Shown here one piece after another: positions 1 to 57,295 of a stretch of 64,000 bases of DNA; positions within the stretch are counted from its first letter, which is position 1, and every line of letters begins with the position of its first letter. A program made the translations under genes and the position numbers. This stretch comes from a virus, in the IMG/VR virus record IMGVR_UViG_3300031952_000005, positions 32,001-96,000 of that record; one strand, given 5' to 3'. The notes under the pieces were generated by a model, which was not told the origin of the DNA, made no database searches, and saw only the letters and a program-made list of their open reading frames with translations.

Positions 1-1258
1 ATTTAGAATAACCACTAATATCACTAGCAGCAGTTGTTGGATATAAAATTAAGTTACTTGGTAAATCTTGTAAAGATATAAAATGTGTGCTACCATTATC
101 ACCATCGTTTATTAATTCTGATGTTTTGGTTACCGTTGTACCCAATGTACCATCACCTTTTACATATTGAGCTGTTGTACCTGCACCTGTTATAGCAAAT
201 GTTCCTGATGAAGTTATAGGAGTAGTAGGTGTAACATTAAATGCTGAAGGTAAAGTTAGTCCAACAGAAGTTACTGTTCCTGAACCTGAAGATATTGTCC
301 AACTTCTATCAGCAGTTAAATCATAAGTAACGCCATTAATAGTTAATGTTCTTGCATTTGTTACAGGAGTATACCCAAGAGCTGTTGTTACATCTGAAGA
401 TGTTATTCCTGTTAAGTATATAGATGTATCAAGAGTGAATACGCCTGCGGCTGTCATTTTTACAAATGGTGTACCGCTAGTCCATGTAGGATAGTTTAAC
501 GCTCCCCAAGTACCTACAGTTGGTATTGTAGGTTTATTTAATATCTGATTGTTACCAGTTGCTGAGTTCCAATTCATAGGTTGTTGAACAATTGGAAATC
601 CTGTACCAATATTTGTCCAATATAGTGTACTAGTAGGTATTATAGAATCGTTACTAGCTATGCATCTGTAAACATCTCCAAGATAATATACAATATCACC
701 TATTACATATTCATTATTTGTTGCTGCTAAGTGGTCTGTTGAAAATGGTAAAGCTGAAAGTATAGTTGGTGGTGGACTTACAATACTTGACCAGTTATAT
801 GACACACCATCTATATTAATTGTATCAAGATCAATAGTTAAATTATGTGCAGCATTTAAATTATCAACTATTTTTATAGTTGCAAATGCATCATTATTTA
901 AATAAAGTGTTCTGTTATTTACAAAATTTGTAGATTGAATATCTGCAGTACTAGTACCACCAAAGTTAGAAATAGCATTTCCCGCATTAACAACTAACTG
1001 TAAAGATTGTTGTGGATTAATATTACTAATAGCATAATCTAATTTTTCAAGTGCTGATAGTACAGTATCATTTGCAGTAATTACGCCTGGAAGAGGTGTA
1101 AAGTTATCAAGTGGTCTATCTAATACTACATCAGAAATAGTTGTACCATCAAATAGTTTAAAATATCCATCTTTTAAATAAAATTTTTTAAAACCAGTTT
1201 GTACACCTCCAGGTGCTCCTGTATAATTAATAACATGTATAGGTGCAATAAATTTCAT
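1..1258 (-). CDS. Tail fibre / virion appendage protein, partial (runs off the left edge; absent from the ORF track)
   Basis: Manual translation from ATG at 1258 (MKFIAPIHVINYTGAPGG...) stays open to position 1. Thr/Gly/Ser-rich, with fibre-type motifs (ITSSDVTTALGYTP, RTLTINGVTYDLTADRSW, GSGTVTSVGL, QYVKGDG) and a CBM5/12-like segment (YVIGDIVYYLGDVYRCIASN...YW). Confidence 0.75.
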   Translation of the reverse strand, partial: MKFIAPIHVINYTGAPGGVQTGFKKFYLKDGYFKLFDGTTISDVVLDRPLDNFTPLPGVITANDTVLSALEKLDYAISNINPQQSLQLVVNAGNAISNFGGTSTADIQSTNFVNNRTLYLNNDAFATIKIVDNLNAAHNLTIDLDTINIDGVSYNWSSIVSPPPTILSALPFSTDHLAATNNEYVIGDIVYYLGDVYRCIASNDSIIPTSTLYWTNIGTGFPIVQQPMNWNSATGNNQILNKPTIPTVGTWGALNYPTWTSGTPFVKMTAAGVFTLDTSIYLTGITSSDVTTALGYTPVTNARTLTINGVTYDLTADRSWTISSGSGTVTSVGLTLPSAFNVTPTTPITSSGTFAITGAGTTAQYVKGDGTLGTTVTKTSELINDGDNGSTHFISLQDLPSNLILYPTTAASDISGYSK

Positions 1259-26766: not shown

Positions 26767-29700
26767 TTAATCTTCAAAAAAGTACAATGGTAATGCACCA
26801 AAATCAACTACTGTTCCACCATATTTTTTTATGTATCCACCGTATTTTCCTACTCTTTGTGGTATTGCTTGTCCTGCTGCAACTATATCACGCATATTAT
26901 TTCTTTGTGATGAACCTGTTCCAGAACCTGATTTACCAAGTTGACGTAACACTGCTTCGTGCGCTTGGTCAGAAGTCATTCCATTATTCATGTAGTCTTT
27001 TTTCATTGCTGCAAATTGAGGACCTGTAACATAACCATTACCAGATGCTACATCATTTGGATATGCAGCATTTTGATATGGATCATATAAAAGATTACCA
27101 TTCTCATCGTATGCCTCTCTACCTTGAGTAAAGTTAACATTACCATTTATACGATTAAATGCATACTGAGGAAACATACTTTCTAATTGATTAGTACGTT
27201 GCATATTAGTTGTACCATTATTAAACGCATCTATTACACCCCATTTTAAATCTCTACGTGCATTGTCGTATTGTTGATTTGCTGTTGCAGATTCTGCAAG
27301 ATATTTTTGTTGAGCATTTGCATTCAAAAGTCTTTCTTGATTTACAATTTGCGCATTTCTTGGAAGTGCTTGATTAACAGTATTAACATTTCTATTTTCT
27401 ACAGTACCAATAGTATTTGCAATTTGTCCAAGTCTTTGATTGGATTGTCCTACCATAGATGCACCTGCAACATTACCAGCAGTTGAGTTATAAGCACCTT
27501 CTCTTGTAGCTGCTGCATCTTCTTGTAGTGCTGCAATTTGTCTAGCAGGATCTTCTAATACGTAAGGAGAAGTTTCAAGATTTACTTTTGCTAATCCTGG
27601 ACCATACTTGCGCGCATCATCAGTCATTTTACCAGCAAAATAAACCTGGTCTTGTAACCACCATGGTTTTCTTTCTTGTGGTCCCATCTGATTTTCCATA
27701 ACAGGAATATCAAACTCTTGTTCTGCAGCAGGAGTGGTTTTTACAACTGGTGCAGGTTTTTTACTGATACCTGGTAAGTTATAATTTTCAACACCTGGTA
27801 CTAACGCACCTTCAATACCCATGTCAATGTACGGTTTGTTTCCAGAAACTGTTCCGATAGCAGCATTTTCATATTCTAACAAATGTGTCATTGCTGGATT
27901 TGCTTTACCTTTTCCTGCAATCTGATCTTGTCTCCATTTAGCAGCACCACCTGGATATGCATTAATTGCATCTGCGTGAATCTTCATGTATTCATCTAGT
28001 CCTCTTGTACCAGGTTTTATATCTTTATATAAAAATCCTGATTCTGGATCTATTTTATAACCTGTCTGAGAAGTTTGTGGTCCAACTGTTTTTTCTTTGT
28101 ATCTAAGATCTTCTGGTAGATAACCAAAGTTATAACCTTTGTCTTGAACAGTTTTTGTCAGGTCAGCATCTTCAACATCATATAAAATTACTTGTCCTTT
28201 TGTACCATCACTATACACAGGTCTTTTGTTACCTGTCTTATTAGAGTACTCATATCCTACAACTGTTTTACCAGAACCTTGTACAGTACTTGGTACACCA
28301 GGTTGTGTTCCTTGATGTTTAGGTAAATACAATCCACCATCTGCAAACTCTTCATCTGTATAAATAATATTATTATTAGGATTTGATGATTGCGCAGCTG
28401 CTTTTACTGGTACTTTAGATGCAACAGGTTTAACAGCATTGGTTACAACAGGTGCAGAAGCAACTACTACTTGTGGTTGTTTTACAGTGGGAGCATTTTC
28501 TTTTACAACAGTTCTGACATTTCTTTCTTGTGCTGTACGAGTTGTATCAATTGGTGTTGGAGCATAAACACTTTTAACTTTTGGTTGTGGTGTTACTTCA
28601 ACATTTGTATTTTCATTTTCATCAACTGCATGTAGTCCTGCTTGACCAATTCTACTTGCAATTGAATACCCTTTTGATAAAAGTTGTTCAAATGGTATTT
28701 TACCAATATATTGTGCTAGAAATTTACCAGCTTGTTTTCCATATTTTGCAGTTAATTCAGCAGCTTGTGCAACGTATGGGGCTGCTACTTGTACTGCTTT
28801 ACCAGTAAGTTTTACTGCACCTTTTCCTAATGCTACAGGTATTTCTGGATATATCATTGGATCTGTTGCAACATCTCCCCAGAAATGTTGAGTATCAGAT
28901 ACTGGTGAGTATCTTGATTTAGTATCCATGGGAGACTCATAGTAACCAGTTAACAACGAGTTAATACCTTTTTGAGGAAGAGTAAACATGTTAGCAGCAT
29001 AATCAAGTACACCACTAGAACCATTAAAAGGAATAAGTTCTTTTAATGCTTGTTTCATTCTTGGATCATCATCAGGATTATTAAGACTCTTTTTGAAATC
29101 AACACTACTCCAGTTTTCTCCAACTCTATCCCAATATCCTGTTGATGTATCTGGACCAACTTTATATGTATTTGTTGGTATGTATGGTTTTTCTTTTGCT
29201 ACTTTTTTCTTACCAGGTAATTTTTTAGTTTGTGGTTGTTTGGTTGTACCAGCTCTCTGATAGTATGCACTACCACCATAACGCATCTGACCTTCTTCTG
29301 CAGCTTCTTGTCCTTCCATCATTTCTTCTGGAGCACCTTGTTCTTGACCAGGTGCTTGTTGTCCTTGTAATCCTGCCATAACAGATTCTGCAATTGCAGG
29401 TATACCATCAGGAAATCCTTTCATAGATTCTTGTACCAATGCAAGCATACCAAGTTTCTCTAAATTGTTTTCTAACATTTTAGATGCAGTACGTTTACTT
29501 ATTTGATCATAATTATTATCCTTTAGAATATTCATATAGTTATTCATAGGATACTTATTTGCAATTTTTGCAGGAGTTACACCACCTTTGTCAAAACTAG
29601 TAATACCAAATATAGAAAGTACTTCTGGATCTTTAATTTTTAACTTCTTTGTATCAGAGAATATAAAAGAACCTGGTGCAACATTAAGAGGTACTCCACC

Positions 29701-29949
29701 TCCAGTATGTCTTTTACCAACAATTTTATTATGTTCTAAAAAACCATCATTGTTTATATCACCAATTACAGTTTCACCACCTTCAGCTTCTATATTTGCT
29801 TCTTCACGTGGTACTGCACTGATAGTGTTTTTGACATTACTATCTTGGTTAATTGGATTTACTTTAATGTATAAATCATTTCTATCAACTAAACTATAGT
29901 TACGTTGATCACCATTTTTTGGTAGTTGTTTTATTCTAATGTTGTACAT
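26767..29949 (-). CDS. Modular internal virion cargo protein, 1060 aa, with xxGG motifs
   Basis: N-terminal ANIEAEGGETV...GKRHTGGGVPL...FIFSD domain typical of crAss-like cargo genes; low-complexity linkers; MRYGG, FADGG, GKYGG, KKYGG motifs; Gln/Asn-rich coiled C-terminal region. Confidence 0.6.
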   Translation of the reverse strand: MYNIRIKQLPKNGDQRNYSLVDRNDLYIKVNPINQDSNVKNTISAVPREEANIEAEGGETVIGDINNDGFLEHNKIVGKRHTGGGVPLNVAPGSFIFSDTKKLKIKDPEVLSIFGITSFDKGGVTPAKIANKYPMNNYMNILKDNNYDQISKRTASKMLENNLEKLGMLALVQESMKGFPDGIPAIAESVMAGLQGQQAPGQEQGAPEEMMEGQEAAEEGQMRYGGSAYYQRAGTTKQPQTKKLPGKKKVAKEKPYIPTNTYKVGPDTSTGYWDRVGENWSSVDFKKSLNNPDDDPRMKQALKELIPFNGSSGVLDYAANMFTLPQKGINSLLTGYYESPMDTKSRYSPVSDTQHFWGDVATDPMIYPEIPVALGKGAVKLTGKAVQVAAPYVAQAAELTAKYGKQAGKFLAQYIGKIPFEQLLSKGYSIASRIGQAGLHAVDENENTNVEVTPQPKVKSVYAPTPIDTTRTAQERNVRTVVKENAPTVKQPQVVVASAPVVTNAVKPVASKVPVKAAAQSSNPNNNIIYTDEEFADGGLYLPKHQGTQPGVPSTVQGSGKTVVGYEYSNKTGNKRPVYSDGTKGQVILYDVEDADLTKTVQDKGYNFGYLPEDLRYKEKTVGPQTSQTGYKIDPESGFLYKDIKPGTRGLDEYMKIHADAINAYPGGAAKWRQDQIAGKGKANPAMTHLLEYENAAIGTVSGNKPYIDMGIEGALVPGVENYNLPGISKKPAPVVKTTPAAEQEFDIPVMENQMGPQERKPWWLQDQVYFAGKMTDDARKYGPGLAKVNLETSPYVLEDPARQIAALQEDAAATREGAYNSTAGNVAGASMVGQSNQRLGQIANTIGTVENRNVNTVNQALPRNAQIVNQERLLNANAQQKYLAESATANQQYDNARRDLKWGVIDAFNNGTTNMQRTNQLESMFPQYAFNRINGNVNFTQGREAYDENGNLLYDPYQNAAYPNDVASGNGYVTGPQFAAMKKDYMNNGMTSDQAHEAVLRQLGKSGSGTGSSQRNNMRDIVAAGQAIPQRVGKYGGYIKKYGGTVVDFGALPLYFFED

Positions 29950-29965
29950 AAACTTTTGAAGTTTA
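29949..29965. promoter_or_regulatory. 17-bp palindrome TAAACTT-TTG-AAGTTTA abutting the start codon (possible operator or translational hairpin)
   Basis: Perfect 7-bp arms; near-identical element at 60352-60368. Confidence 0.3.
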
Positions 29966-29987
29966 AAGTTAAAAATGATAAATCTCT

Positions 29988-30003
29988 TACATTTAGAATT
30001 TAC
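29988..30003 (-). promoter_or_regulatory. Putative phage late-promoter motif GTAAATTCTAAATGTA
   Basis: Intergenic; shares GTAAATTC-N4-TGTA exactly with 45501-45516 and 52481-52496. Confidence 0.55.
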
Positions 30004-30045
30004 AAATATAATTTGTTTTTTCCTATTTTGTTACAGAGTTTGTTA

Positions 30046-31659
30046 TTAATTGATGAATTCAATTTCTGCACCATCTTGCATAAGTTGCAATAGTTCATCT
30101 TCTGATACTTGATATTCACCACCTTGTGCAAATGACTTTTTCATAAAACCACCATATCTGGCACTTTGAATAGGTGTTGTCATACCTGGTTGGAAATTTT
30201 GAGATGGTCCAACATTAAGTGTGTAATCACCAAATGGATTTGGACTATTATACGCCATACCAAAATCAGTATTTCCAGTACGTCTTAACATGTCTTCATA
30301 TTCTCTTTGTTGTTTTTCCGCTTCTCTTGAACGAATAGTATTGGCAAATGCACCTAACCCTGCTAGTGATTTTTGTGCATACTCCATTCCATTAAAAGAG
30401 TTGTTATTTATGTTATTATTTCTTCTTGCATCACGAATATATTTTTTCTCTAAAGGATTTGTCTCATAAAGATCATTAGGTTCTTCTGTAATTAATTGCT
30501 GTTCATCTAACATGTATTGGTCAGGTACATTATTATTTCCTTGCATTGGCGCAAATTGTGATTCATCAATAGTAGAATCTTCATTAGCAGGAATTGCAGG
30601 TTTTGGAAATTGTATTTTATTGTTATTAAAAGCATTCAATTGATTGCTGGTCATGTTATCTGTATTGAACGGTTGTCCAAAAGAACGTATAGCATTATTA
30701 TATTGATTATATGCATCAGCACCTTGCGCTCTTGCAGAAGCATCTACTGTTGTATTTTGTGGATATTCATTTGGATCAGGTGTGTTATTTTGTTGTGCGT
30801 ATGGTGGTCCTTGAGGATTACTAAATCCAAACTGTGCTTGTGGTAAAACACCACCATAAGCAGCAACCATAGAATCATACTCACCATTGTACTGTGGTTG
30901 TTTTGTAAAATCAGTATTTCTAATTTTGTTATAGTTTATTGAAGGAGCAGGTGTAAGGTTTGGAGCAGGAATATTATTCATATTATTAATATTTCTATTT
31001 CTGTTATAACCTAAGTCAGTACTAAAGTCCACAACATTTCCTAAACTGTTATTTGTATTTTGTAAAATATTACTACCAGGTTTTATTTTGTTACCAATCC
31101 ATTGTGCAGCTTTACCATATCCTAAAGCAGCACCTGCTGTAGCACCTACAAGTCCTAGTACACCAGAAGCGTCATTTAACAGTTTTCCAAATGGTCCTTT
31201 TCTTTCTGAAGTAAGCGCGTTGATTGTAGGATTAATATATGGAATACCTTGTCCAAATCCAACTGCACCACGTGCACCATAAGCACCACCACCTTGATAA
31301 GACTCCATCTCTTGAGACTCATCATTATCTGCATATGACATTGGAGCTTCTTGTTGCTGAGGTTCTTGCATTTGTTGTTGTTGCATTTGTCCAGCACCTT
31401 GTTGCACTTCAGCAACCATAGTCTGAATTGCTTGTTGCTGACCATTCTCATCAAGTTCCTGTAATTTTTGTACAATCATTTTGGGATCAACACCATGTAT
31501 CTTTGCATACATAGTAATTAACTGCATGATCTGTTCTTGCTCTCCTCCTTGTTGTGCTTTATGTAAACCACCATGTTCTAAAACAGTTAATGGATTAGTA
31601 AAGTATTCGTATGGTAATACAAATTTATTTTTTTCGCATTCTGTACACTTCTTATTCAT
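30046..31659 (-). CDS. Low-complexity internal virion protein, 537 aa, with multiple xxGG motifs
   Basis: Gln/Asn/Pro-rich; LEHGG, KAQQGG, SYQGGG, AAYGG-VLPQAQFG, ARYGG, FAQGG; hydrophobic GVLGLVGATAGAALGYG. Confidence 0.55.
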   Translation of the reverse strand: MNKKCTECEKNKFVLPYEYFTNPLTVLEHGGLHKAQQGGEQEQIMQLITMYAKIHGVDPKMIVQKLQELDENGQQQAIQTMVAEVQQGAGQMQQQQMQEPQQQEAPMSYADNDESQEMESYQGGGAYGARGAVGFGQGIPYINPTINALTSERKGPFGKLLNDASGVLGLVGATAGAALGYGKAAQWIGNKIKPGSNILQNTNNSLGNVVDFSTDLGYNRNRNINNMNNIPAPNLTPAPSINYNKIRNTDFTKQPQYNGEYDSMVAAYGGVLPQAQFGFSNPQGPPYAQQNNTPDPNEYPQNTTVDASARAQGADAYNQYNNAIRSFGQPFNTDNMTSNQLNAFNNNKIQFPKPAIPANEDSTIDESQFAPMQGNNNVPDQYMLDEQQLITEEPNDLYETNPLEKKYIRDARRNNNINNNSFNGMEYAQKSLAGLGAFANTIRSREAEKQQREYEDMLRRTGNTDFGMAYNSPNPFGDYTLNVGPSQNFQPGMTTPIQSARYGGFMKKSFAQGGEYQVSEDELLQLMQDGAEIEFIN

Positions 31660-31709
31660 AACACAAATTTTTAGTTACATGTTTATTATCACATGATTAC
31701 ATTACTAAT

Positions 31710-33728
31710 TTACAATTTATTTCTTGGATTTATTATGTTTTCTCTATAATATTCATCAAAGGGTACAGGACCTCCTACCACTTTTCTTTTCATAAAATCT
31801 ATAACAGTTTTACCAGGTGCAAGATATTTTGCCATTGATTGTTCATGTGGTAACTTGTTATTGACATTTGCATATAACATTCCTCCTAGTTCTTGTATTG
31901 CCATTCTATCAAATCCTGTCATATCACTGTAAGGACTTGACAAGTCACCACCATTTTTTTGTTGTTGTAATGTTGCTGCTCCTACTGCTGCAGGAACCAT
32001 TGCACCAAGTCCTATTTTATTTAAAGATTTTAATAATGCATTCATATCAAAATCTTCAACTTTTACTCCTTTTAAATATTCATGTCCTGTATTCATTAAA
32101 CTTTGCAGTTTGTTTTTGATTTCAGGAATATCTTTTTCTGTATAAACTCTGTTTCCTTTTATATCACCAAGAGATGCTCTTAATTCATTTTGTACTGCAA
32201 ATGCTTCTTCAGCAGGCATTCCAAAATCATTATTTTTTATCATAGGTTCCCAAGCTGCACTAGCAATTTTTTCTTCTTGCGGAGTTGCTTTTAATCTTAT
32301 AGATCTACTATGGGTTGCTTCATGCATTGCATCAGTATAAGCAGATGTTGTTGGAATATTTGATGTATTTGCTCTAAATTTATCAACCATTACTACGTCA
32401 TTCATATCCCCATGATTATTTGCAAGATAGTTACCTCGTGAATTTCCTAACTGTTCTGTTACATTTTCAGGATAATCTAAATTACCATTGTTTCTAAATG
32501 CCTGATATTCATTGTTTAACACAGGATCATCAATAAATCTTGCTTGTTGATTAGAAACATTAAATTCTTGATTAGGTCTAAACTCTTGTAATTTTTGTCT
32601 ATTAAAAGGTGAGTTTGAAAAAGCTGTAGCATCTGCATTAGCTCTTGCTAACTCTTGTTCTGCAAGTAACGCTTCTTTTTGTAAAAATGTAGGCGCAGAT
32701 GATGTTGATATAACAGGTGCTTTTTTACCAAATCCAAACAAGTTTAAATCTATATTACTTGCATTACCCATATTTCTTTTAGCATTAAATGCTGTTATAT
32801 ATGGATCTTCTACATATGGTGTGTATGTGTTTATATTTTTAGGTGCAGGAATAACATTACCATTAGCATCATAAAATATTGTATTTTCTAATTCTTTTGC
32901 AGCAGTATATTTACTACCCATAACATTTCTAAACACTTCTTCTTCTCTACTAATACCTGCTTCTCCTACCTGAGAAAGATATGGTTCTAATCCTTTTGCA
33001 GATTCTGCTACATATGGTCGATATTTACCAATTGATTCAGCAATTGAAGGAACTCTGTATTCTCCTGTAAACGGTAAAACTGTTTTTGAGTTTACAAACT
33101 GATTTGCTGCGGAACCAAGTTCTGTTAATGCTTTTTTAACAGGTCTTGCTACATATCCTAATGCTTGACTAACATAAGGACTTATTACTTCACCTACTGC
33201 ACCTGCTACCAGTGGTTCACCAATTGCTTCAACGTAAGGCGTATACGAGTCTTCTTGTTGTGCTCTCAAAGGTGCTTGACCTAGATTTGCTGCCATTTTA
33301 CCAATCCAACTTGCAGGATTTATGTAATCATCAACCACATTAGGTTCATCAGAAACTCTAAATTGTGATTCTAAACCTTTTGCAGATTCTGCTATGTTTT
33401 CTCTTGTCCAGTTTTCAGGATTTAAAGACACTGCAAACTTTTGATTTAAAGGATTTGCACTAGATTTTTTTCTATCAATACCTCTTTGTACACCTGGAAC
33501 ATTTTGTATAGTTCCTTGTTTATCAATTAATGCTTGTACTCTTCTTTGTTCTATCTGTTGCGGTGTAAGTTGTATACCTACTTTTGGTTTAAAGTTAGGT
33601 GTGTTATCTTTAGTAGCAACTGCTATCATTCTTTCATCTCGAGGTACTATTTTACCAAGTTGTGCTTTTGGTAATTGATTATTAGAAAGAAACTTTTCTA
33701 AAATAAACATGTTTCCTTGACGTGCCAT
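31710..33728 (-). CDS. Modular cargo protein, 672 aa, with zincin-like metallopeptidase module
   Basis: HEATH (32310-32324) followed by EEAFAVQNELR; LPKAQLG at the N-terminus; QKNGG, QELGG, KVVGG at the C-terminus. Confidence 0.6.
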   Translation of the reverse strand: MARQGNMFILEKFLSNNQLPKAQLGKIVPRDERMIAVATKDNTPNFKPKVGIQLTPQQIEQRRVQALIDKQGTIQNVPGVQRGIDRKKSSANPLNQKFAVSLNPENWTRENIAESAKGLESQFRVSDEPNVVDDYINPASWIGKMAANLGQAPLRAQQEDSYTPYVEAIGEPLVAGAVGEVISPYVSQALGYVARPVKKALTELGSAANQFVNSKTVLPFTGEYRVPSIAESIGKYRPYVAESAKGLEPYLSQVGEAGISREEEVFRNVMGSKYTAAKELENTIFYDANGNVIPAPKNINTYTPYVEDPYITAFNAKRNMGNASNIDLNLFGFGKKAPVISTSSAPTFLQKEALLAEQELARANADATAFSNSPFNRQKLQEFRPNQEFNVSNQQARFIDDPVLNNEYQAFRNNGNLDYPENVTEQLGNSRGNYLANNHGDMNDVVMVDKFRANTSNIPTTSAYTDAMHEATHSRSIRLKATPQEEKIASAAWEPMIKNNDFGMPAEEAFAVQNELRASLGDIKGNRVYTEKDIPEIKNKLQSLMNTGHEYLKGVKVEDFDMNALLKSLNKIGLGAMVPAAVGAATLQQQKNGGDLSSPYSDMTGFDRMAIQELGGMLYANVNNKLPHEQSMAKYLAPGKTVIDFMKRKVVGGPVPFDEYYRENIINPRNKL

Positions 33729-33732
33729 AGTA

Positions 33733-36700
33733 TTATCTTTTCTTTTTAGGTTTAACAGTTACCTCATTAAGTTCCATTGCACCATCTTCATTAGGTGTCA
33801 TTTGTCTATACAAATTATTTCTCCAGTTTTGTTCTACTTTGTAAGGATAACTTCCAGGATCTCTTTGGTATTTTTGTCTCATTTCATCTTCACCACTTTC
33901 TGTAAATGCACCTTCTGTAAAATTACTCATTGTTCCTTCATTAAATGGTATATAATCATCATCATTTTCCCAAGTAGTTCCAGATGCAATAGAAGAGAAT
34001 TGATTTCTTAAATAAGGAGAATATCTACCAACACCATCATCTAATGCATTGCTATTAACATCAGTATATAAATCATCTGTTTGGAATCCTCCAGATGTTG
34101 TACCATCTGCATTGACCATCTCTGGTCTAGTAAATCCAAATAAGTTTTTACTAAGTTTATTTTGTTCACCCCAGTTCTCTAAAACTTGTTTATCTTGTAA
34201 ATCCATTGCAGTCATAAGAGGTAATACTTTTTCCATATTATACAAATCATTTGGTGATTGTATACCAAACTTTTGTTTTAACTCAGTAGGAATACTATTA
34301 AACTTAATCTGTCCAGGTCCTACTGATAATCTTTTACCACCACCTACTGATGTTAAAACACTTTCTGCAATGTTTTCTGTAAGTGAACCTAATCCTTTTC
34401 CACGTGATGTAGTCCAGTTGTTTTCAGCACCTAGTTCACCAAATACATTTAGTAATGAATCTTGTATTTCTTCTTTAGACTTACCTGTCTTCTTAACAAG
34501 ATCATTTACTTTATCATTATCATTTGCAAATAATAAAAACTTATCCATAACATTTTTAGTAGTGTTATTGTAGTTTTTTGCATTAGGTGATATACTCCAT
34601 TTATATGACGCTTTAGATGCAGATTCTTTTTTTACAAAATCTTTTTTGTCTTCATAGTTTTGTTTTTCTTCAGGTGTTAATCCTAGAGGATTTGCATCAT
34701 TGTATGGATTAACTTTATAAATAGATGCAGAAGGTTCTGTTGATGTTCTTGCACGATCAAGTAAATCTGCTACATCACTTTCAGAATATGTTCTTTCTGT
34801 TTTCCAAAAATTATCAAAAAATCTAAGTTCACCATTTGCATTTTTACCTAAGTAAATCTGAGCGTGTCCTGGATAAAAATTACCTTGTTCATTTTTACGA
34901 TTGTTACGTTGCAACATATCACCTGGTTCAAGATTAGTTATGCCTTTAACACCATATCCATTGTTTGCAGTAAATCCATACTCTTTTGCATTCTTAGAAA
35001 AACTAGTGTTAGACCAATCTATGTTTTTCATTACACCTGCTTCTTTGTACACATCACAAACTCCACCAATACAACTGTTAGCAGATTGGTCAAGTGCTAC
35101 TGCAGCTTTTTTTAAATCATCAGGTACAGCAATATACTTACCAGTTTTGATTCTGTCTTCTGCAATTTGCACAACTCGCTGTGCCATTTCTTTAGTGTGA
35201 ACATTTCTGTCAGAAGGATTAATAACTTCTACTTCTGGTGGTGCCACCATGCTATCCTGTCTTTGTTTTTTTAGTATTTTTTCTATTAATGCAAGATTCT
35301 GTTGCATAGAACCATCTGTTAATCCTTGTGCTCTAGCAGTACTCCATGGTTGACCTGTTAGTTTTGTGTATTGTTCTGCTACACCATTTCCTGTTGTACC
35401 ACCAATGTCATAACGCTGGTGTTCACCACCATATTTGTTAGGAGAAACTGTTTTAAAAGCATCAACACCTCCAAAGCTTTCCATATTACCCATTCTATTT
35501 AAAAGATCAGGTGTCAATATTTCATCACTCATAATAAGAGATTTCAAATAATCAGGATTAGCAGTTCTAACTTTACCTGTTCTTTCGAAAATTGTATTAT
35601 TCATTTGATTTTGAAAATCTTGAGCATCAAATGCTTTTGCATTATTCCAGTCAGAAGCCAGTGTTTTTTTAAACATTGTTGGATTTGTAATATCTTGATG
35701 TCCAATATCGCCAAATAAACTTAATTTAGATTTAGTATTTTGATATTGCTCAGGAGTCATAAATTTTTCTTGAAAACTGCGAGGTACTAGTTCAGGAAAT
35801 TTTTTGTCAAATACTATATCAGCATCACTTAAAGGATATTCATCTGCAAATTCAAAATACTTATTCCAATAATTTTTTTCTTTTGCTATTTTATCAGCAA
35901 GTTCTTTGTCAGTATAAAAATCTTTTTCTGCAACTAATGGTTTTTTACCATATGTTGCTTTAACAATTTGTTCATCAACTGCATTGTTAAATGGTTCTAC
36001 TTCTGAAATACCTCCTTTGTTTGGTAACTCATCCATATATTTCCATTCACCTGTTGGAAAATTTTGTGTAGCATTACTATCATAAAATACTTTCTCACCG
36101 TCAATATTTTCAATAGCATTTGCAAAATCATCTCCTATTTTAGGTATTTTACCTTTGACCATTCCTTTTGTAAAAAACGGTAGTTTTCTTAAAGAACCTA
36201 ATTTTGAAAGAGCTTTTTCTTTTGTTAATATTCCTGCACCAATTAAGTTTGCAGGATCTGCAAAAACATTTAAAAGAGTGTCATCAAGATTTCTACCAAA
36301 TGCACTAGGACTATCAAACCATCCTTCCTTGGTATTATGTCCCCATGCTTCAGAAGGATCTTGAACTTTACCAGTTGTTGCATAAGTAAGAGCATGCTGT
36401 CCAACAGATGCAGGGTATTTTACTACACTACCTATTGCTCCTAATAAACCATCATCTGCATTATCTTTTAAATACTTATCTCTAGACTGTTCCCAGAATC
36501 CTCTAGGTCTTTTATAGTTATTCTGTATAGTAACTTCATCAAGTAGTATTGGAGAACGTTGTCCATCTTCTGTTACAACCTCACCTCTGTTATATGCTTT
36601 TTCATATTCTGGTGTACCATATTTTACTGTTCCTGCTTTTTGATACTTATTACTAACAGACATTACATCTGCATTCTTAAACCAGTTACCTGTGTAGTTT

Positions 36701-37749
36701 CCACCATTTTGCATTATCTTATTTTCATTACCACATTTGTGACAAGTACTAACATCATTACCACCATCTGCAGCTTTCCATAACCAACCACAATTAGAAC
36801 ACTTAATAGTCTTATTAAGTAATCCACCATACTTTGCAATAGGCATTTCAGATTGATCATTGTTCTGAGCAATGTTATTCATTAACCATATAAGATCTTC
36901 ATCAGAATAATTTTCTAATGCTCTGTTTTTACGACCAGTATTTTTTAACTGATTAAGATGTTCTTGTGTAAACTCTTCATAACCAGGATTATAGATACCA
37001 AGTTTTGCAGCTTCATATTGTAATGCTTTTTGATCAGCATAATTTTCATCTGCTCCTCTTGACATTTTATTATTTTTGTTTCTTGATTGTAGTTCATTAT
37101 AATCATATTGATTATAATATGGTACATTACTTCCAATGATAGAATCACTTGAGTCTAATACAGAATGTCCAAACTCATGTGCAAGTACACTGTCATTATC
37201 ATTTGGTAAAATAGATTTATCTTTTGTAACCCATTGTTTAAGATCTCTATTAGGTGAATGATGTATAGTATTACTACCAGTATTATAATAAGAACCATCT
37301 CTATTTTCATCAAGTTTGTATTTAGTTCTGTTTACATTTGCTTGTCTTCGTTCTAATACTTTCTCAACATCTTTGTAACCTGACTTTTCTAAATTCTCTT
37401 TATATAAAGGTGATTCTATATATTTATTAAACCATGTTTTTACATTATTAAATTCTTCTTGTGGTCCACCTTCTTGAGCAATAGGCATTTCTACTACACG
37501 CGTACCAGGATACTGATATTTTTGTCCAGGAAACATTTGTTGCTTATTACCAAATTCATCCATACCTATAAGAGGAGTACTTACGCCTTGCATAGTTATA
37601 GATGTACCTTGTGGTGTACCATAAATAGTATTACTAGGATTGTTTCTGTAAGGAGAATCATCCTTGTAACCTTGCATAGAAATATCCTGTTTTACTTTTT
37701 CATTTTGTCCAGTTATGAACTTCATCAAAATTTCTCTATTACCACTCAT
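33733..37749 (-). CDS. Multidomain cargo protein, 1338 aa: zincin, Zn ribbon, putative PG-binding module, NlpC/P60-like peptidase and lysozyme/transglycosylase-like domain
   Basis: HEFGH (37165-37179); CSNCG...CHKCG; NSCIGGV...LEPGDML...GHAQIYLG (Cys/His dyad of NlpC/P60/CHAP); FGELGAENN...SVGPGQIK (lysozyme-like E...GxxQ). Domains are separated by xxGG motifs. Confidence 0.7.
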   Translation of the reverse strand: MSGNREILMKFITGQNEKVKQDISMQGYKDDSPYRNNPSNTIYGTPQGTSITMQGVSTPLIGMDEFGNKQQMFPGQKYQYPGTRVVEMPIAQEGGPQEEFNNVKTWFNKYIESPLYKENLEKSGYKDVEKVLERRQANVNRTKYKLDENRDGSYYNTGSNTIHHSPNRDLKQWVTKDKSILPNDNDSVLAHEFGHSVLDSSDSIIGSNVPYYNQYDYNELQSRNKNNKMSRGADENYADQKALQYEAAKLGIYNPGYEEFTQEHLNQLKNTGRKNRALENYSDEDLIWLMNNIAQNNDQSEMPIAKYGGLLNKTIKCSNCGWLWKAADGGNDVSTCHKCGNENKIMQNGGNYTGNWFKNADVMSVSNKYQKAGTVKYGTPEYEKAYNRGEVVTEDGQRSPILLDEVTIQNNYKRPRGFWEQSRDKYLKDNADDGLLGAIGSVVKYPASVGQHALTYATTGKVQDPSEAWGHNTKEGWFDSPSAFGRNLDDTLLNVFADPANLIGAGILTKEKALSKLGSLRKLPFFTKGMVKGKIPKIGDDFANAIENIDGEKVFYDSNATQNFPTGEWKYMDELPNKGGISEVEPFNNAVDEQIVKATYGKKPLVAEKDFYTDKELADKIAKEKNYWNKYFEFADEYPLSDADIVFDKKFPELVPRSFQEKFMTPEQYQNTKSKLSLFGDIGHQDITNPTMFKKTLASDWNNAKAFDAQDFQNQMNNTIFERTGKVRTANPDYLKSLIMSDEILTPDLLNRMGNMESFGGVDAFKTVSPNKYGGEHQRYDIGGTTGNGVAEQYTKLTGQPWSTARAQGLTDGSMQQNLALIEKILKKQRQDSMVAPPEVEVINPSDRNVHTKEMAQRVVQIAEDRIKTGKYIAVPDDLKKAAVALDQSANSCIGGVCDVYKEAGVMKNIDWSNTSFSKNAKEYGFTANNGYGVKGITNLEPGDMLQRNNRKNEQGNFYPGHAQIYLGKNANGELRFFDNFWKTERTYSESDVADLLDRARTSTEPSASIYKVNPYNDANPLGLTPEEKQNYEDKKDFVKKESASKASYKWSISPNAKNYNNTTKNVMDKFLLFANDNDKVNDLVKKTGKSKEEIQDSLLNVFGELGAENNWTTSRGKGLGSLTENIAESVLTSVGGGKRLSVGPGQIKFNSIPTELKQKFGIQSPNDLYNMEKVLPLMTAMDLQDKQVLENWGEQNKLSKNLFGFTRPEMVNADGTTSGGFQTDDLYTDVNSNALDDGVGRYSPYLRNQFSSIASGTTWENDDDYIPFNEGTMSNFTEGAFTESGEDEMRQKYQRDPGSYPYKVEQNWRNNLYRQMTPNEDGAMELNEVTVKPKKKR
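36823..37491 (-). repeat. Imperfect 27-bp direct repeats encoding EMPIAQEGG (37465-37491) and EMPIAKYGG (36823-36849), flanking the zincin module
   Basis: Plus strand tccaccttcttgagcaataggcatttc vs tccaccatactttgcaataggcatttc; identical 14-bp core gcaataggcatttc. Confidence 0.75.
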
Positions 37750-55391: not shown

Positions 55392-55634
55392 TTAACATTT
55401 CCATTTTTTTAACGCCAATGCTTTTCTTGTTGGTTCTCCATTTGGTTTTTTCATAGGACCAGATACTCCAGACATTCTTGCACAAAAAGATTCTTTTCTA
55501 GGACCACCTTCTGGTTGAGGTGCTTTTAAGTTAGAACCAGGATTTGCTTTGTTGTAAGAGTCTCTTCCTTTCTGATTTAAACCACCAGAAGGAGATTTAC
55601 CTTCTTTTCTTGTCCATGCAAGTGTCTTTGCCAT
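55392..55634 (-). CDS. Small basic protein, 80 aa (DUF6321-like)
   Basis: AWTRKEGK.P.GGLN.KGR.SY...NLKAP...SFCARM.G...KALALKKWKC pattern common in aquatic phages. Confidence 0.65.
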   Translation of the reverse strand: MAKTLAWTRKEGKSPSGGLNQKGRDSYNKANPGSNLKAPQPEGGPRKESFCARMSGVSGPMKKPNGEPTRKALALKKWKC

Positions 55635-55635
55635 G

Positions 55636-55782
55636 TTATTTACCTTTAGATTTTATTTTTTTTTCTTGTTTGATCATCTCAGGTGTAGGTTTCTTACCTG
55701 AACCTTTGTTTGCTCTTATGTTATCCCAAAGACCTCTCTGAGAACTAGAACCATCTGCGCGTTTTATCATTTGCTTTGCCAT
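55636..55782 (-). CDS. Small basic protein, 48 aa (absent from the ORF track)
   Basis: MAKQMIKRADGSSSQRGLWDNIRANKGSGKKPTPEMIKQEKKIKSKGK*; tiles between neighbours. Confidence 0.7.
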   Translation of the reverse strand: MAKQMIKRADGSSSQRGLWDNIRANKGSGKKPTPEMIKQEKKIKSKGK

Positions 55783-55794
55783 GACAGTTACTTA

Positions 55795-55938
55795 TTAACA
55801 TTTTTTAGTTTTACCACCCATTCTCATTACAGGAGTAGCAAGACTTTTTGTTGCAATGATTGGTGTTCTTTGTTGTTTACTAATAGGTTTTTTTGCTTCT
55901 GCAGCATCTTTGCCTAACTGTTTTTTATTGAATGACAT
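55795..55938 (-). CDS. Small basic protein, 47 aa, ending MRMGGKTKKC (absent from the ORF track)
   Basis: MSFNKKQLGKDAAEAKKPISKQQRTPIIATKSLATPVMRMGGKTKKC*. Confidence 0.65.
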   Translation of the reverse strand: MSFNKKQLGKDAAEAKKPISKQQRTPIIATKSLATPVMRMGGKTKKC

Positions 55939-57169: not shown

Positions 57170-57295
57170 CTAACACTTTTTATACTTACTTGGTGAAGCA
57201 CCTGCAAGTTTTTGTGTTTTTGGACCAGATTGAGGAGAAGTAGGTTTCTTTACTACAATCTTGTTACTCATTGCTGCTTTATTTTTTCCTGTCAT
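57170..57295 (-). CDS. Small basic protein, 41 aa, ending YKKC (absent from the ORF track)
   Basis: MTGKNKAAMSNKIVVKKPTSPQSGPKTQKLAGASPSKYKKC*; no acidic residues; A-rich leader. Confidence 0.6.
   Translation of the reverse strand: MTGKNKAAMSNKIVVKKPTSPQSGPKTQKLAGASPSKYKKC

Follow-up and report, generated by a model that had tools for sequence, protein, structure and literature searches.

The stretch analysed here, referred to as the window, comprises 64,000 nucleotides (bases 32001–96000) of the 105,464-bp virus record IMGVR_UViG_3300031952_000005, a marine crAss-like phage genome with an estimated completeness of 87%. All large genes lie on the minus strand, where the portal (915 amino acids, aa) is followed in reading order by the major head protein, the tail genes and a 1791-aa protein homologous to virion structural PHROGs, the muzzle-protein homologue. 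Directly behind it lie four open reading frames (ORFs) of 1338, 672, 537 and 1060 aa, here called P0001 to P0004, and then ORFs of 881, 1604, 4014 and 1970 aa. The portal shares 22–31% identity with portals of Crassvirales and other Bacteroidota phages. In crAss001, the muzzle gene gp44 is succeeded by the cargo genes gp45 and gp46 and then by the giant RNA-polymerase-associated proteins (PMC10172136). Because the gene order behind the muzzle matches that of crAss001, P0001–P0004 occupy the cargo position. They most likely constitute the cargo (ejection-protein) block of this phage, carried in the particle and injected, as suggested by synteny and by mass spectrometry of the Cellulophaga phage phi4:1 (see below). 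Our subject is a short peptide ending in Gly-Gly that recurs throughout these four proteins. Sequence searches of the four against Pfam, NCBIfam, PHROGs and the PDB returned a sole match, phrog_24249 (zincin), and tblastn of P0003 and P0004 against 50,697 phage records returned no match.

An initial annotation, made from the letters alone, had reported about 20 copies of this motif across the four adjacent genes. We find the ORFs where it placed them, and since the count including degenerate forms (AQLG, KHQG, QRAG and the N-terminal LPKNG) is about 24, its figure is a fair one. The enrichment that it proposed to measure depends on the pattern chosen. Plain GG is not enriched, with 31 occurrences in the four ORFs against 25 expected from the Gly content, a number reached in 224 of 2,000 shuffles. 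The context pattern [MAFY][QKRA]xGG, in contrast, matches 11 sites in these ORFs (3,607 residues) and two in the genome’s other 29,468 aa. Shuffling yields a mean of 1.1 and never reached 11 in 2,000 trials, which corresponds to an enrichment of about 10-fold over shuffles and about 45-fold over the remaining proteome. Likewise, [KRA]YGG is found seven times in the four ORFs and nowhere else in the genome.

To define the motif independently, fifteen relatives were collected via the muzzle gene, and their ORFs downstream of the muzzle were profiled around GG. Counted from the first G, the enriched residues are L/M at –6, P at –5, K/I at –4, A/M/Y at –3, Q/K at –2 and Y/E at –1. No such enrichment precedes GG in the relatives’ upstream ORFs or in the muzzle itself. 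A matrix built from the relatives only gives 14 sites of at least 9 bits in the window genome, all within the four ORFs, including a few homologous domain-internal GGs such as IEAEGG. The composite joint peptide can be described as an Asn-rich spacer followed by (L/M)-P-hydrophobic-(A/Y)-(Q/K)-x-G-G, often with 1–3 further residues and then (L)-P-K-(A/Y/H)-Q-x-G. In its full form it reads aromatic-G-G, 1–3 residues, LPK(A/Y)Q-x-G.

The motif is conserved beyond what its surroundings would predict. In an alignment of P0003 with seven homologues (29–55% identical), invariance is seen at 12 of the 33 motif positions, compared with 40 of the 504 other positions (p = 1.5e-5). Across 120 homologues of P0004, column identity around the two internal doublets is 20–40%, yet GG is kept in 119–120 of them. 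The consensus at these doublets is (R/K)(Y/F)GG, 1–3 residues, L-P-K-(A/Y)-Q-x-x-G, and the main insertion hotspots of the family lie directly behind both.

Comparison with relatives (L-numbered loci) places the motif at the joints between modules. BLASTP breakpoints fall on it in P0001 (94/95, 300–309, 373 and 774–779) as well as in P0002 (25, 594 and 607). The Zn ribbon precedes the zincin in L003, L004 and L013, an order permuted with respect to P0001. Modules of the P0001 and P0002 type are fused into single ORFs of 2344 aa in L002, 2162 aa in L012 and 1910 aa in L013. The L002 fusion (L002:10001-17035, IMGVR_UViG_3300002447_000010) contains several X from ambiguous bases, so that its exact sequence is uncertain, while all joints are readable. 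Residues 372–783 of P0001 are missing from L004, and the resulting joint lies inside the motif (SVSNKY|DIGG). Small modules have been inserted exactly between the halves of the N-terminal doublet of P0003. At the DNA level, copies share a recurrent TAT GGT GG(T/A) microhomology, and identity between copies spans just 8–9 bases. Among the 120 P0004 homologues, the number of motifs does not correlate with length (rho –0.12), so the expectation of one extra motif per extra module is not borne out. As to position, the picture drawn by the initial annotation holds: the AlphaFold2 model of the zincin, BLASTP breakpoints and P0004 insertion hotspots place the motif at domain boundaries, and in the homologous loci that it suggested aligning, breakpoints, fusions, permutations and one deletion joint fall on the motif. 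These are modular proteins whose exchangeable payloads are gained, lost, permuted and fused at motif joints.

The natural ends of related proteins carry the same peptide in parts. Among 149 distant relatives of the zincin cassette, the conserved MNNIA helix is followed by ..[AY][QK]xGG in 72, the median distance being 16 residues, and by a one-G form in a further 32. The proteins end 7–24 residues past this helix in 34 of the 149 (most at 10–15), typically with ..IA, ..FA or ..YG. Because these 34 end within the motif, its first half is kept at natural C-termini. Natural N-termini of zincin relatives often consist of M and basic residues followed by MPDGG, KKAQKGG or GWLDKY..IPKAQAG. P0004 opens with a conserved LPKxG, and the leader of P0002, LPKAQLG-KIVPRDER, is identical to the internal junction before the same module in L012 and L002. 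Some copies lie 9–25 residues from natural N-termini. As the two halves are kept separately at natural C- and N-termini, the joint resembles a fusion between the tail of one protein end and the leader of another, C-terminus to N-terminus.

Many distant zincin relatives also show a longer tail after the one-G junction, composed of AKNG, 6–12 residues, L(D/N)QLTNFTNYN(K/T)P, 2–5 residues and GGWLDKY. It is carried by P0034, P0041, P0063, P0078, P0086, P0119, P0127 and P0144, often as the C-terminus of the protein, and GWLDKY recurs at the start of some N-termini. This tail would appear to represent the tail-plus-leader tag at full length.

Free-standing small genes give a second view of the same exchange. 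A 48-aa gene in the head module equals a motif-bounded module of the P0003 homologues in L011–L013; in L013 it matches the module between ..KTGG and KQMGG with 81% identity (E 1e-22). Longer proteins of diverse origin, more than 3,000 in number, contain this module (..KRADGS.S.RGLWDNIRANKGSGKKPT..) at 85–95% identity; in them it is found at one or the other end of small proteins, with EF-hand, dockerin or DUF6321 parts as fusion partners. The adjoining 80-aa gene is fused behind it in other phages via ...KMGG or ...ARTG, and several of these fusions carry Pfam DUF6321. The motif can be taken as real: it is conserved, confined to the cargo ORFs and placed at joints, and gene boundaries and junctions are interchangeable. 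Also in the head region, the 47-aa basic peptide of the initial annotation, with its MRMGG-KTKKC end, is present. A C-terminal cysteine, within a K-x-K-K-C or KKWKC ending, is shared by three small basic ORFs located near the head genes (55795-55938, 55392-55634 and 57170-57295).

Table 1. Cargo genes, modules and junction sites in the window (positions in the window; res, residues).
Feature	Position	Strand	Remarks
Muzzle-protein homologue, 1791 aa	37749..43124	-	Fixes position of the cargo block
P0001, 1338 aa	33733..37749	-	First cargo ORF behind the muzzle gene
P0002, 672 aa	31710..33728	-	Leader ending LPKAQLG (res 19-25), helical/unknown modules, HEATH zincin-like module, small C-terminal modules
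P0003, 537 aa	30046..31659	-	Mostly low-complexity; 7 junction sites; conserved C-terminal peptide EYQVSEDELLQLMQDGAEIEFIN
P0004, 1060 aa	26767..29949	-	Conserved N-terminal domain, two internal junction doublets, conserved helical C-terminal region, terminal KYGG-x-KKYGG doublet
MPIAQEGG, P0001 res 88-95	37465..37488	-	Between N-module and zincin
MPIAKYGG, P0001 res 302-309	36823..36846	-	Between zincin and Zn ribbon
KIMQNGG (res 344-350) and NKYQKAG (res 367-373), P0001	36631..36723	-	Junctions
Doublet NKYGG-EHQRYDIGG, P0001 res 771-784	35398..35448	-	Deletion joint in L004
QLPKAQLG, P0002 res 18-25	33654..33677	-	N-terminal leader junction; internal junction in L012, L002
LQQQKNGG, P0002 res 587-594	31947..31970	-	Junction
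IQELGG, P0002	31881-31904	-	Weaker site after LQQQKNGG
RKVVGG, P0002	31770-31793	-	Weaker site after LQQQKNGG
Doublet LEHGG-LHKAQQGG, P0003 res 24-39	31543..31590	-	Whole small modules inserted between halves in relatives
SYQGGG, P0003	31285-31308	-	Single site
Doublet AAYGG-VLPQAQFG, P0003 res 263-278	30826..30873	-	
Doublet ARYGG-FMKKSFAQGG, P0003 res 497-514	30118..30171	-	Y502, G503, G504, G513, G514 invariant in 7 homologues
Half-junction QLPKNG, P0004 res 8-13	29911..29928	-	N-terminal; in 51 homologues P10 and K11 nearly invariant, G13 invariant
Doublet MRYGG-SAYYQRAG, P0004 res 219-234	29248..29295	-	GG kept in 119/120 homologues; insertion hotspot behind
Doublet FADGG-LYLPKHQG, P0004 res 532-547	28309..28356	-	GG kept in 119-120/120 homologues; insertion hotspot behind
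Doublet GKYGG-YIKKYGG, P0004 res 1031-1045	26815..26859	-	15 residues before the C-terminus
Zincin (gluzincin-type) cassette, P0001 res 96-293	36871..37464	-	H191, E192, H195, E235, D239 invariant
Zn-ribbon cassette (CSNCG...CHKCG), P0001 res 310-342	36724..36822	-	CxxC...CxxC
Conserved C-terminal part, P0001 res 840-1338	33736..35232	-	CHAP/NlpC-P60-like and SLT/lysozyme-like; language-model lead only
HEATH zincin-like module, P0002 ~res 380-590	31959..32591	-	66% identical to the end of the L002 2344-aa fusion
P0004 res 39-181	29407..29835	-	Best structural match is the portal-bound domain of crAss001 C1
47-aa basic ORF ending PVMRMGG-KTKKC	55795..55938	-	One weak motif copy
Free 48-aa gene, head module	55636..55782	-	Equals motif-bounded module in P0003 homologues of L011-L013
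80-aa gene adjoining the 48-aa gene	55392..55634	-	Elsewhere fused behind the 48-aa module

P0001 is organised as a constant N-module (1–94), the zincin, the Zn ribbon, variable cassettes and a conserved wall-hydrolase-like C-terminal part. Of the domain labels given earlier, the P0001 zincin, a second HExxH module in P0002 and the Zn ribbon stand, whereas NlpC/P60 and lysozyme are a language-model lead only. The HExxH, E and D of the zincin are invariant in 47 sequences. AlphaFold2 modelling of P0001 residues 80–315 produced a model (predicted local distance difference test, pLDDT, 84) with a confident zincin at model residues 17–214 (corresponding to P0001 96–293), adjoined on both sides by motif segments with pLDDT below 55. 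In this model, which includes both flanks so as to test docking, neither junction is placed in the active-site cleft and the flanks are of low confidence. Fold matches of the zincin model are weak and confined to zincins, including anthrax lethal factor, PepO and ArdC; in Foldseek searches of the zincin and P0004 N-domain models against the PDB, nothing reached E <=0.001. The cassette is a mobile module: a search of 1.84 billion representatives gave 332 proteins with a relative of it, and in these proteins, 186–2433 aa long, it can occupy any position. Motif-rich cargo ORFs of L011, L014 and L015 lack HExxH, and for this reason the zincin was rejected as a universal processing enzyme.

Among the virion-block proteins of crAss001 that were checked, the only HExxH lies at residue 2157 of gp47 (TTYHEAFHVVF; L019:16120-23145), where it may mark a zincin terminating this RNA-polymerase-associated cargo protein. 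P0001 also contains a second recurrent motif, (E/D)DG, 4–6 residues, L-(D/N/Q/P)-E-(V/I)-x-(V/I) and then basic residues, at residues 403–408 (36526-36543; ILLDEVTIQ) and at the C-terminus (residues 1327–1338; 33736-33770; MELNEVTVKPKKKR). It is kept at the same places in L002, L003, L004, L006, L012 and L013. We take it to resemble the TonB box of Bacteroidota SusC/RagA transporters, and its sequence could represent a TonB-box mimic on an ejected protein.

The cargo protein C1 (gp45) of crAss001 allows the motif to be placed in a structural context. Cryo-electron microscopy resolved two pieces of gp45, 214–245 and 425–552 (PMC10172136). The protein carries AYGG/AFGG-type sites at 209, 263, 332, 427, 434 and 562 (SAYGG, FAEGGG, KAFGG, NAFGG, TQGG and FAYGG), and both resolved pieces fall between them. 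It starts with MAKKKIKRRGKMPPNIFDTGG, has a basic leader ending in ..DTGG and ends in ..LTYG. Chain M of 7QOG (gp45) is modelled from A425 and reads A425-F-G-G-W-L-N-T-Q-G-G435. Because the chain runs through both AFGG and TQGG435, these two GG sites are intact in the particle, and this continuity argues against cutting within the virion. The Pfam family crAss_CARG1 (PF25725) spans residues 424–555 of gp45 (222 bits), NAFGG occupying profile positions 1–5, and the architecture zincin, AAFGG, CARG1 is found in P0032, P0082 and P0083. Searching P0001–P0004 and the six-frame translated genome with PF25725 (threshold 27 bits) gave no match at E up to 10. Comparing the model of the P0004 N-domain with 48,161 chains ranks 7QOG chain M (425..547) first, with a Z-score of 5.5, a root-mean-square deviation of 3.5, 94 aligned residues and 21% identity; the next chain scores 5.0. 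This modest match may tie P0004 loosely to C1. BLASTP of P0004 against gp45 gave a weak C-terminal match (E 0.06).

Published gel data of crAss001 were analysed by peptide-mass fingerprinting, a low-sensitivity approach, from the matrix-assisted laser desorption/ionisation peak lists of a 2018 study (PMC6235969, supplement; bands 1–9, at least 70 kDa). Bands 1–2 (>300 kDa) fit gp44 (muzzle) and gp34, and bands 3 and 4 fit full-length gp50 plus gp47 and gp49 plus gp44. The remaining bands correspond to the portal, gp26 plus gp22, gp22 plus gp25, gp25 and gp23. The assignment of the two largest bands suggests that gp44 and gp34 form a complex resistant to sodium dodecyl sulphate.

The motif also extends beyond Crassvirales. 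In Cellulophaga phage phi4:1 (genus Lightbulbvirus), gp041 has LTYAQAGG directly before the same zincin, and gp040 carries NFQAGG, SYQNGG, TFQIGG, KFQSGG and KLKWGG. Both gp040 and gp041 are annotated as virion proteins from tandem mass spectrometry.

The initial annotation had likened the motif to known Gly-Gly systems, namely the maturation sites of adenovirus and African swine fever virus (ASFV) and double-glycine bacteriocin leaders, in which Gly-Gly likewise ends a conserved stretch. Neither analogy survives as membership of a known family. Counted from the last G, the profile of the motif is L/M at –8, P at –7, A/M/Y at –5 and Q/K at –4. The fourth residue before the putative cut is thus Q/K and not M/I/L, and profile searches found neither C5 adenain (PF00770) nor C48 (PF02902) in the genome; the ASFV C63 family was not searched. 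Double-glycine leaders have LSxxELxxIxGG (consensus L-12, E-8, L-7, I-4, G-2, G-1), which the motif of this phage does not match, and C39 (PF03412) is absent from the genome at E up to 10. The capsid-targeting sequences of phage T4 internal proteins, removed by the prohead protease gp21, offer a further parallel as short N-terminal leaders common to unrelated cargo, and by that parallel targeting and trimming could depend on one and the same short motif. Unlike in T4, the motif here is not confined to N-termini and also takes internal and C-terminal positions, and the head-maturation proteases S77, S78 and S49 (PF03420, PF04586 and PF01343) are absent from the genome, which is 87% complete and in which divergent enzymes could be missed. 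The T4 consensus, L/I-x-E, is unlike the motif. Presumed likenesses to the sortase signal LPXTG and to transglutaminase Q-tags were considered and dropped.

Two further systems can be compared. The first is crAss001 C1, encoded in the gene block directly behind the muzzle and bearing GG sites between its resolved pieces. In the present phage there are four ORFs with enzyme cassettes (zincins and putative wall hydrolases), and gp45 is without the longer LPKAQ-x-G half-site. The paper describing C1 does not mention the motif (Bayfield et al. 2023, PMC10172136). The second comprises the polyvalent proteins of Iyer, Burroughs, Anand, de Souza and Aravind (2017, PMC5512222), in which many unrelated domains are joined in one virion-delivered polypeptide, zincin-like cassettes occur and shuffling is rapid. 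Two features of that class are found in our set, a varying multidomain architecture (L002–L017) and a zincin-like metallopeptidase. Processing of polyvalent proteins was predicted and never shown, and the paper makes no mention of a motif at linkers or junctions (the words “linker” and “glycine” occur 0 times each; PMC5512222). In contrast to that description, almost all joints, and the natural termini too, bear a defined peptide here. In the literature searched, we found no description of the motif, of Gly-Gly cleavage of ejection proteins or of crassvirus processing.

Of the two roles offered by the initial annotation, packaging tag or cleavage site, neither can be read from the sequence itself; the modularity and the marking of joints stand, and the analogies to known systems do not. 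We tentatively favour the hypothesis that the joint peptide represents fused terminal cargo tags, a tail plus a leader, that stay uncut in the virion. Each of the four products is a chain of autonomous, exchangeable modules, and in-frame fusion of free-standing cargo genes would leave the C-terminal tail and the N-terminal leader behind as a tag at every joint. The motif is predicted to be disordered on its own and is under purifying selection; to judge from crAss001 C1, it would escape cutting in the mature particle. It may act as a flexible handle recognised by sites in the portal or tail interior or by an assembly factor. Any motif-flanked module could in this way be loaded like a bead on a string and then threaded outwards from N to C, and cleavage might still follow after ejection.

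Several observations weigh against this hypothesis. Its structural evidence comes from one distant relative, crAss001, and from two sites only. The motif is left disordered by AlphaFold2. The conserved residues sit N-terminal of GG and are weak behind it, as is typical of protease sites, and in the low-sensitivity fingerprint neither gp46 nor full-length gp45 was significant in any crAss001 band of at least 70 kDa. Finally, free genes that equal motif-bounded modules, and a free module order, are equally expected of a cleaved polyprotein.

Polyprotein processing is a serious, if doubtful, competitor. Here the chain would be cut after G-G or inside the motif by the zincin or by an unrecognised phage or host protease, in the head or after ejection, releasing modules as small effectors or structural proteins. 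The free 48-aa gene, bounded by GG and KQMGG where it is a module, and its fusion to the 80-aa gene via ..KMGG elsewhere fit such a scheme, as do the interchange of stop codons and junctions (P0001 with P0002 in L002, L012 and L013) and the permuted module order. The non-prime location of the specificity would suit a protease, and so would the small residues that occupy the last two positions ahead of the putative cut; zincin cassettes, which are common, have the motif directly on their flanks, zincin-driven processing has been predicted for polyvalent proteins (PMC5512222), and the undetected gp45 band points weakly the same way. Speaking against it are the gp45 chain of 7QOG, continuous through two GG sites, the absence of the C5, C39, C48, S77, S78 and S49 families, and the many motifs of L011, L014 and L015 in cargo ORFs without HExxH. 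Moreover, AlphaFold2 leaves the flanking motif outside the zincin cleft, and a cut at motifs 9–25 residues from natural N-termini would free just a tiny peptide. Avoidance of the motif in other virion proteins, where 0 were seen against 2.1 expected, is not significant (p about 0.13) in an underpowered comparison. It is rather unlikely that both roles are combined, the bipartite peptide (aromatic-G-G tail plus LPKAQ-x-G leader) being a portable and sufficient cargo signal of crAss-like and some other Bacteroidota phages. On this view, a protein flanked by the peptide would enter the head or tail cargo zones and be ejected into the host, and the chain would then be cut at the same place by an unrecognised Gly-Gly-specific protease of phage or host, a grammar of packaging and release for which no counterpart in tailed phages has been described.

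Less probable still is a passive hinge or recombination joint, that is, a flexible, fold-neutral spacer spread by viable in-frame chimeras and recognised by no protein. The predicted disorder, the module swaps at joints, the deletion joint inside the motif and the recurrent TAT GGT GG(T/A) microhomology are what such a spacer would leave behind. However, the non-glycine positions (P, hydrophobic, A/Y and Q/K) are kept across relatives of at most 30% identity and in an unrelated phage genus, and motif columns are over-represented among the invariant columns of P0003. The halves are also retained at natural C- and N-termini, where a hinge is unneeded, and DNA identity between copies covers only those 8–9 bases. 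Chance, as an artefact of Gly-rich low-complexity proteins, accounts for the plain GG count but is refuted by the excess of the context pattern over shuffles and the rest of the proteome and by its retention in 120 homologues.

The most abundant human gut viruses belong to the Crassvirales (PMC10172136). The motif offers a concrete, mutable handle on the loading, threading and possible processing of megadaltons of Crassvirales cargo protein, and a practical rule for splitting otherwise unannotatable giant ORFs into modules. Should it prove a sufficient signal, it may serve as a tag for placing foreign proteins in phage particles. The link between the junction and a tail plus a leader makes the question of tag or cut site experimentally addressable with crAss001 gp45 and Cellulophaga phi4:1 gp040 and gp041, all from cultivable phages.

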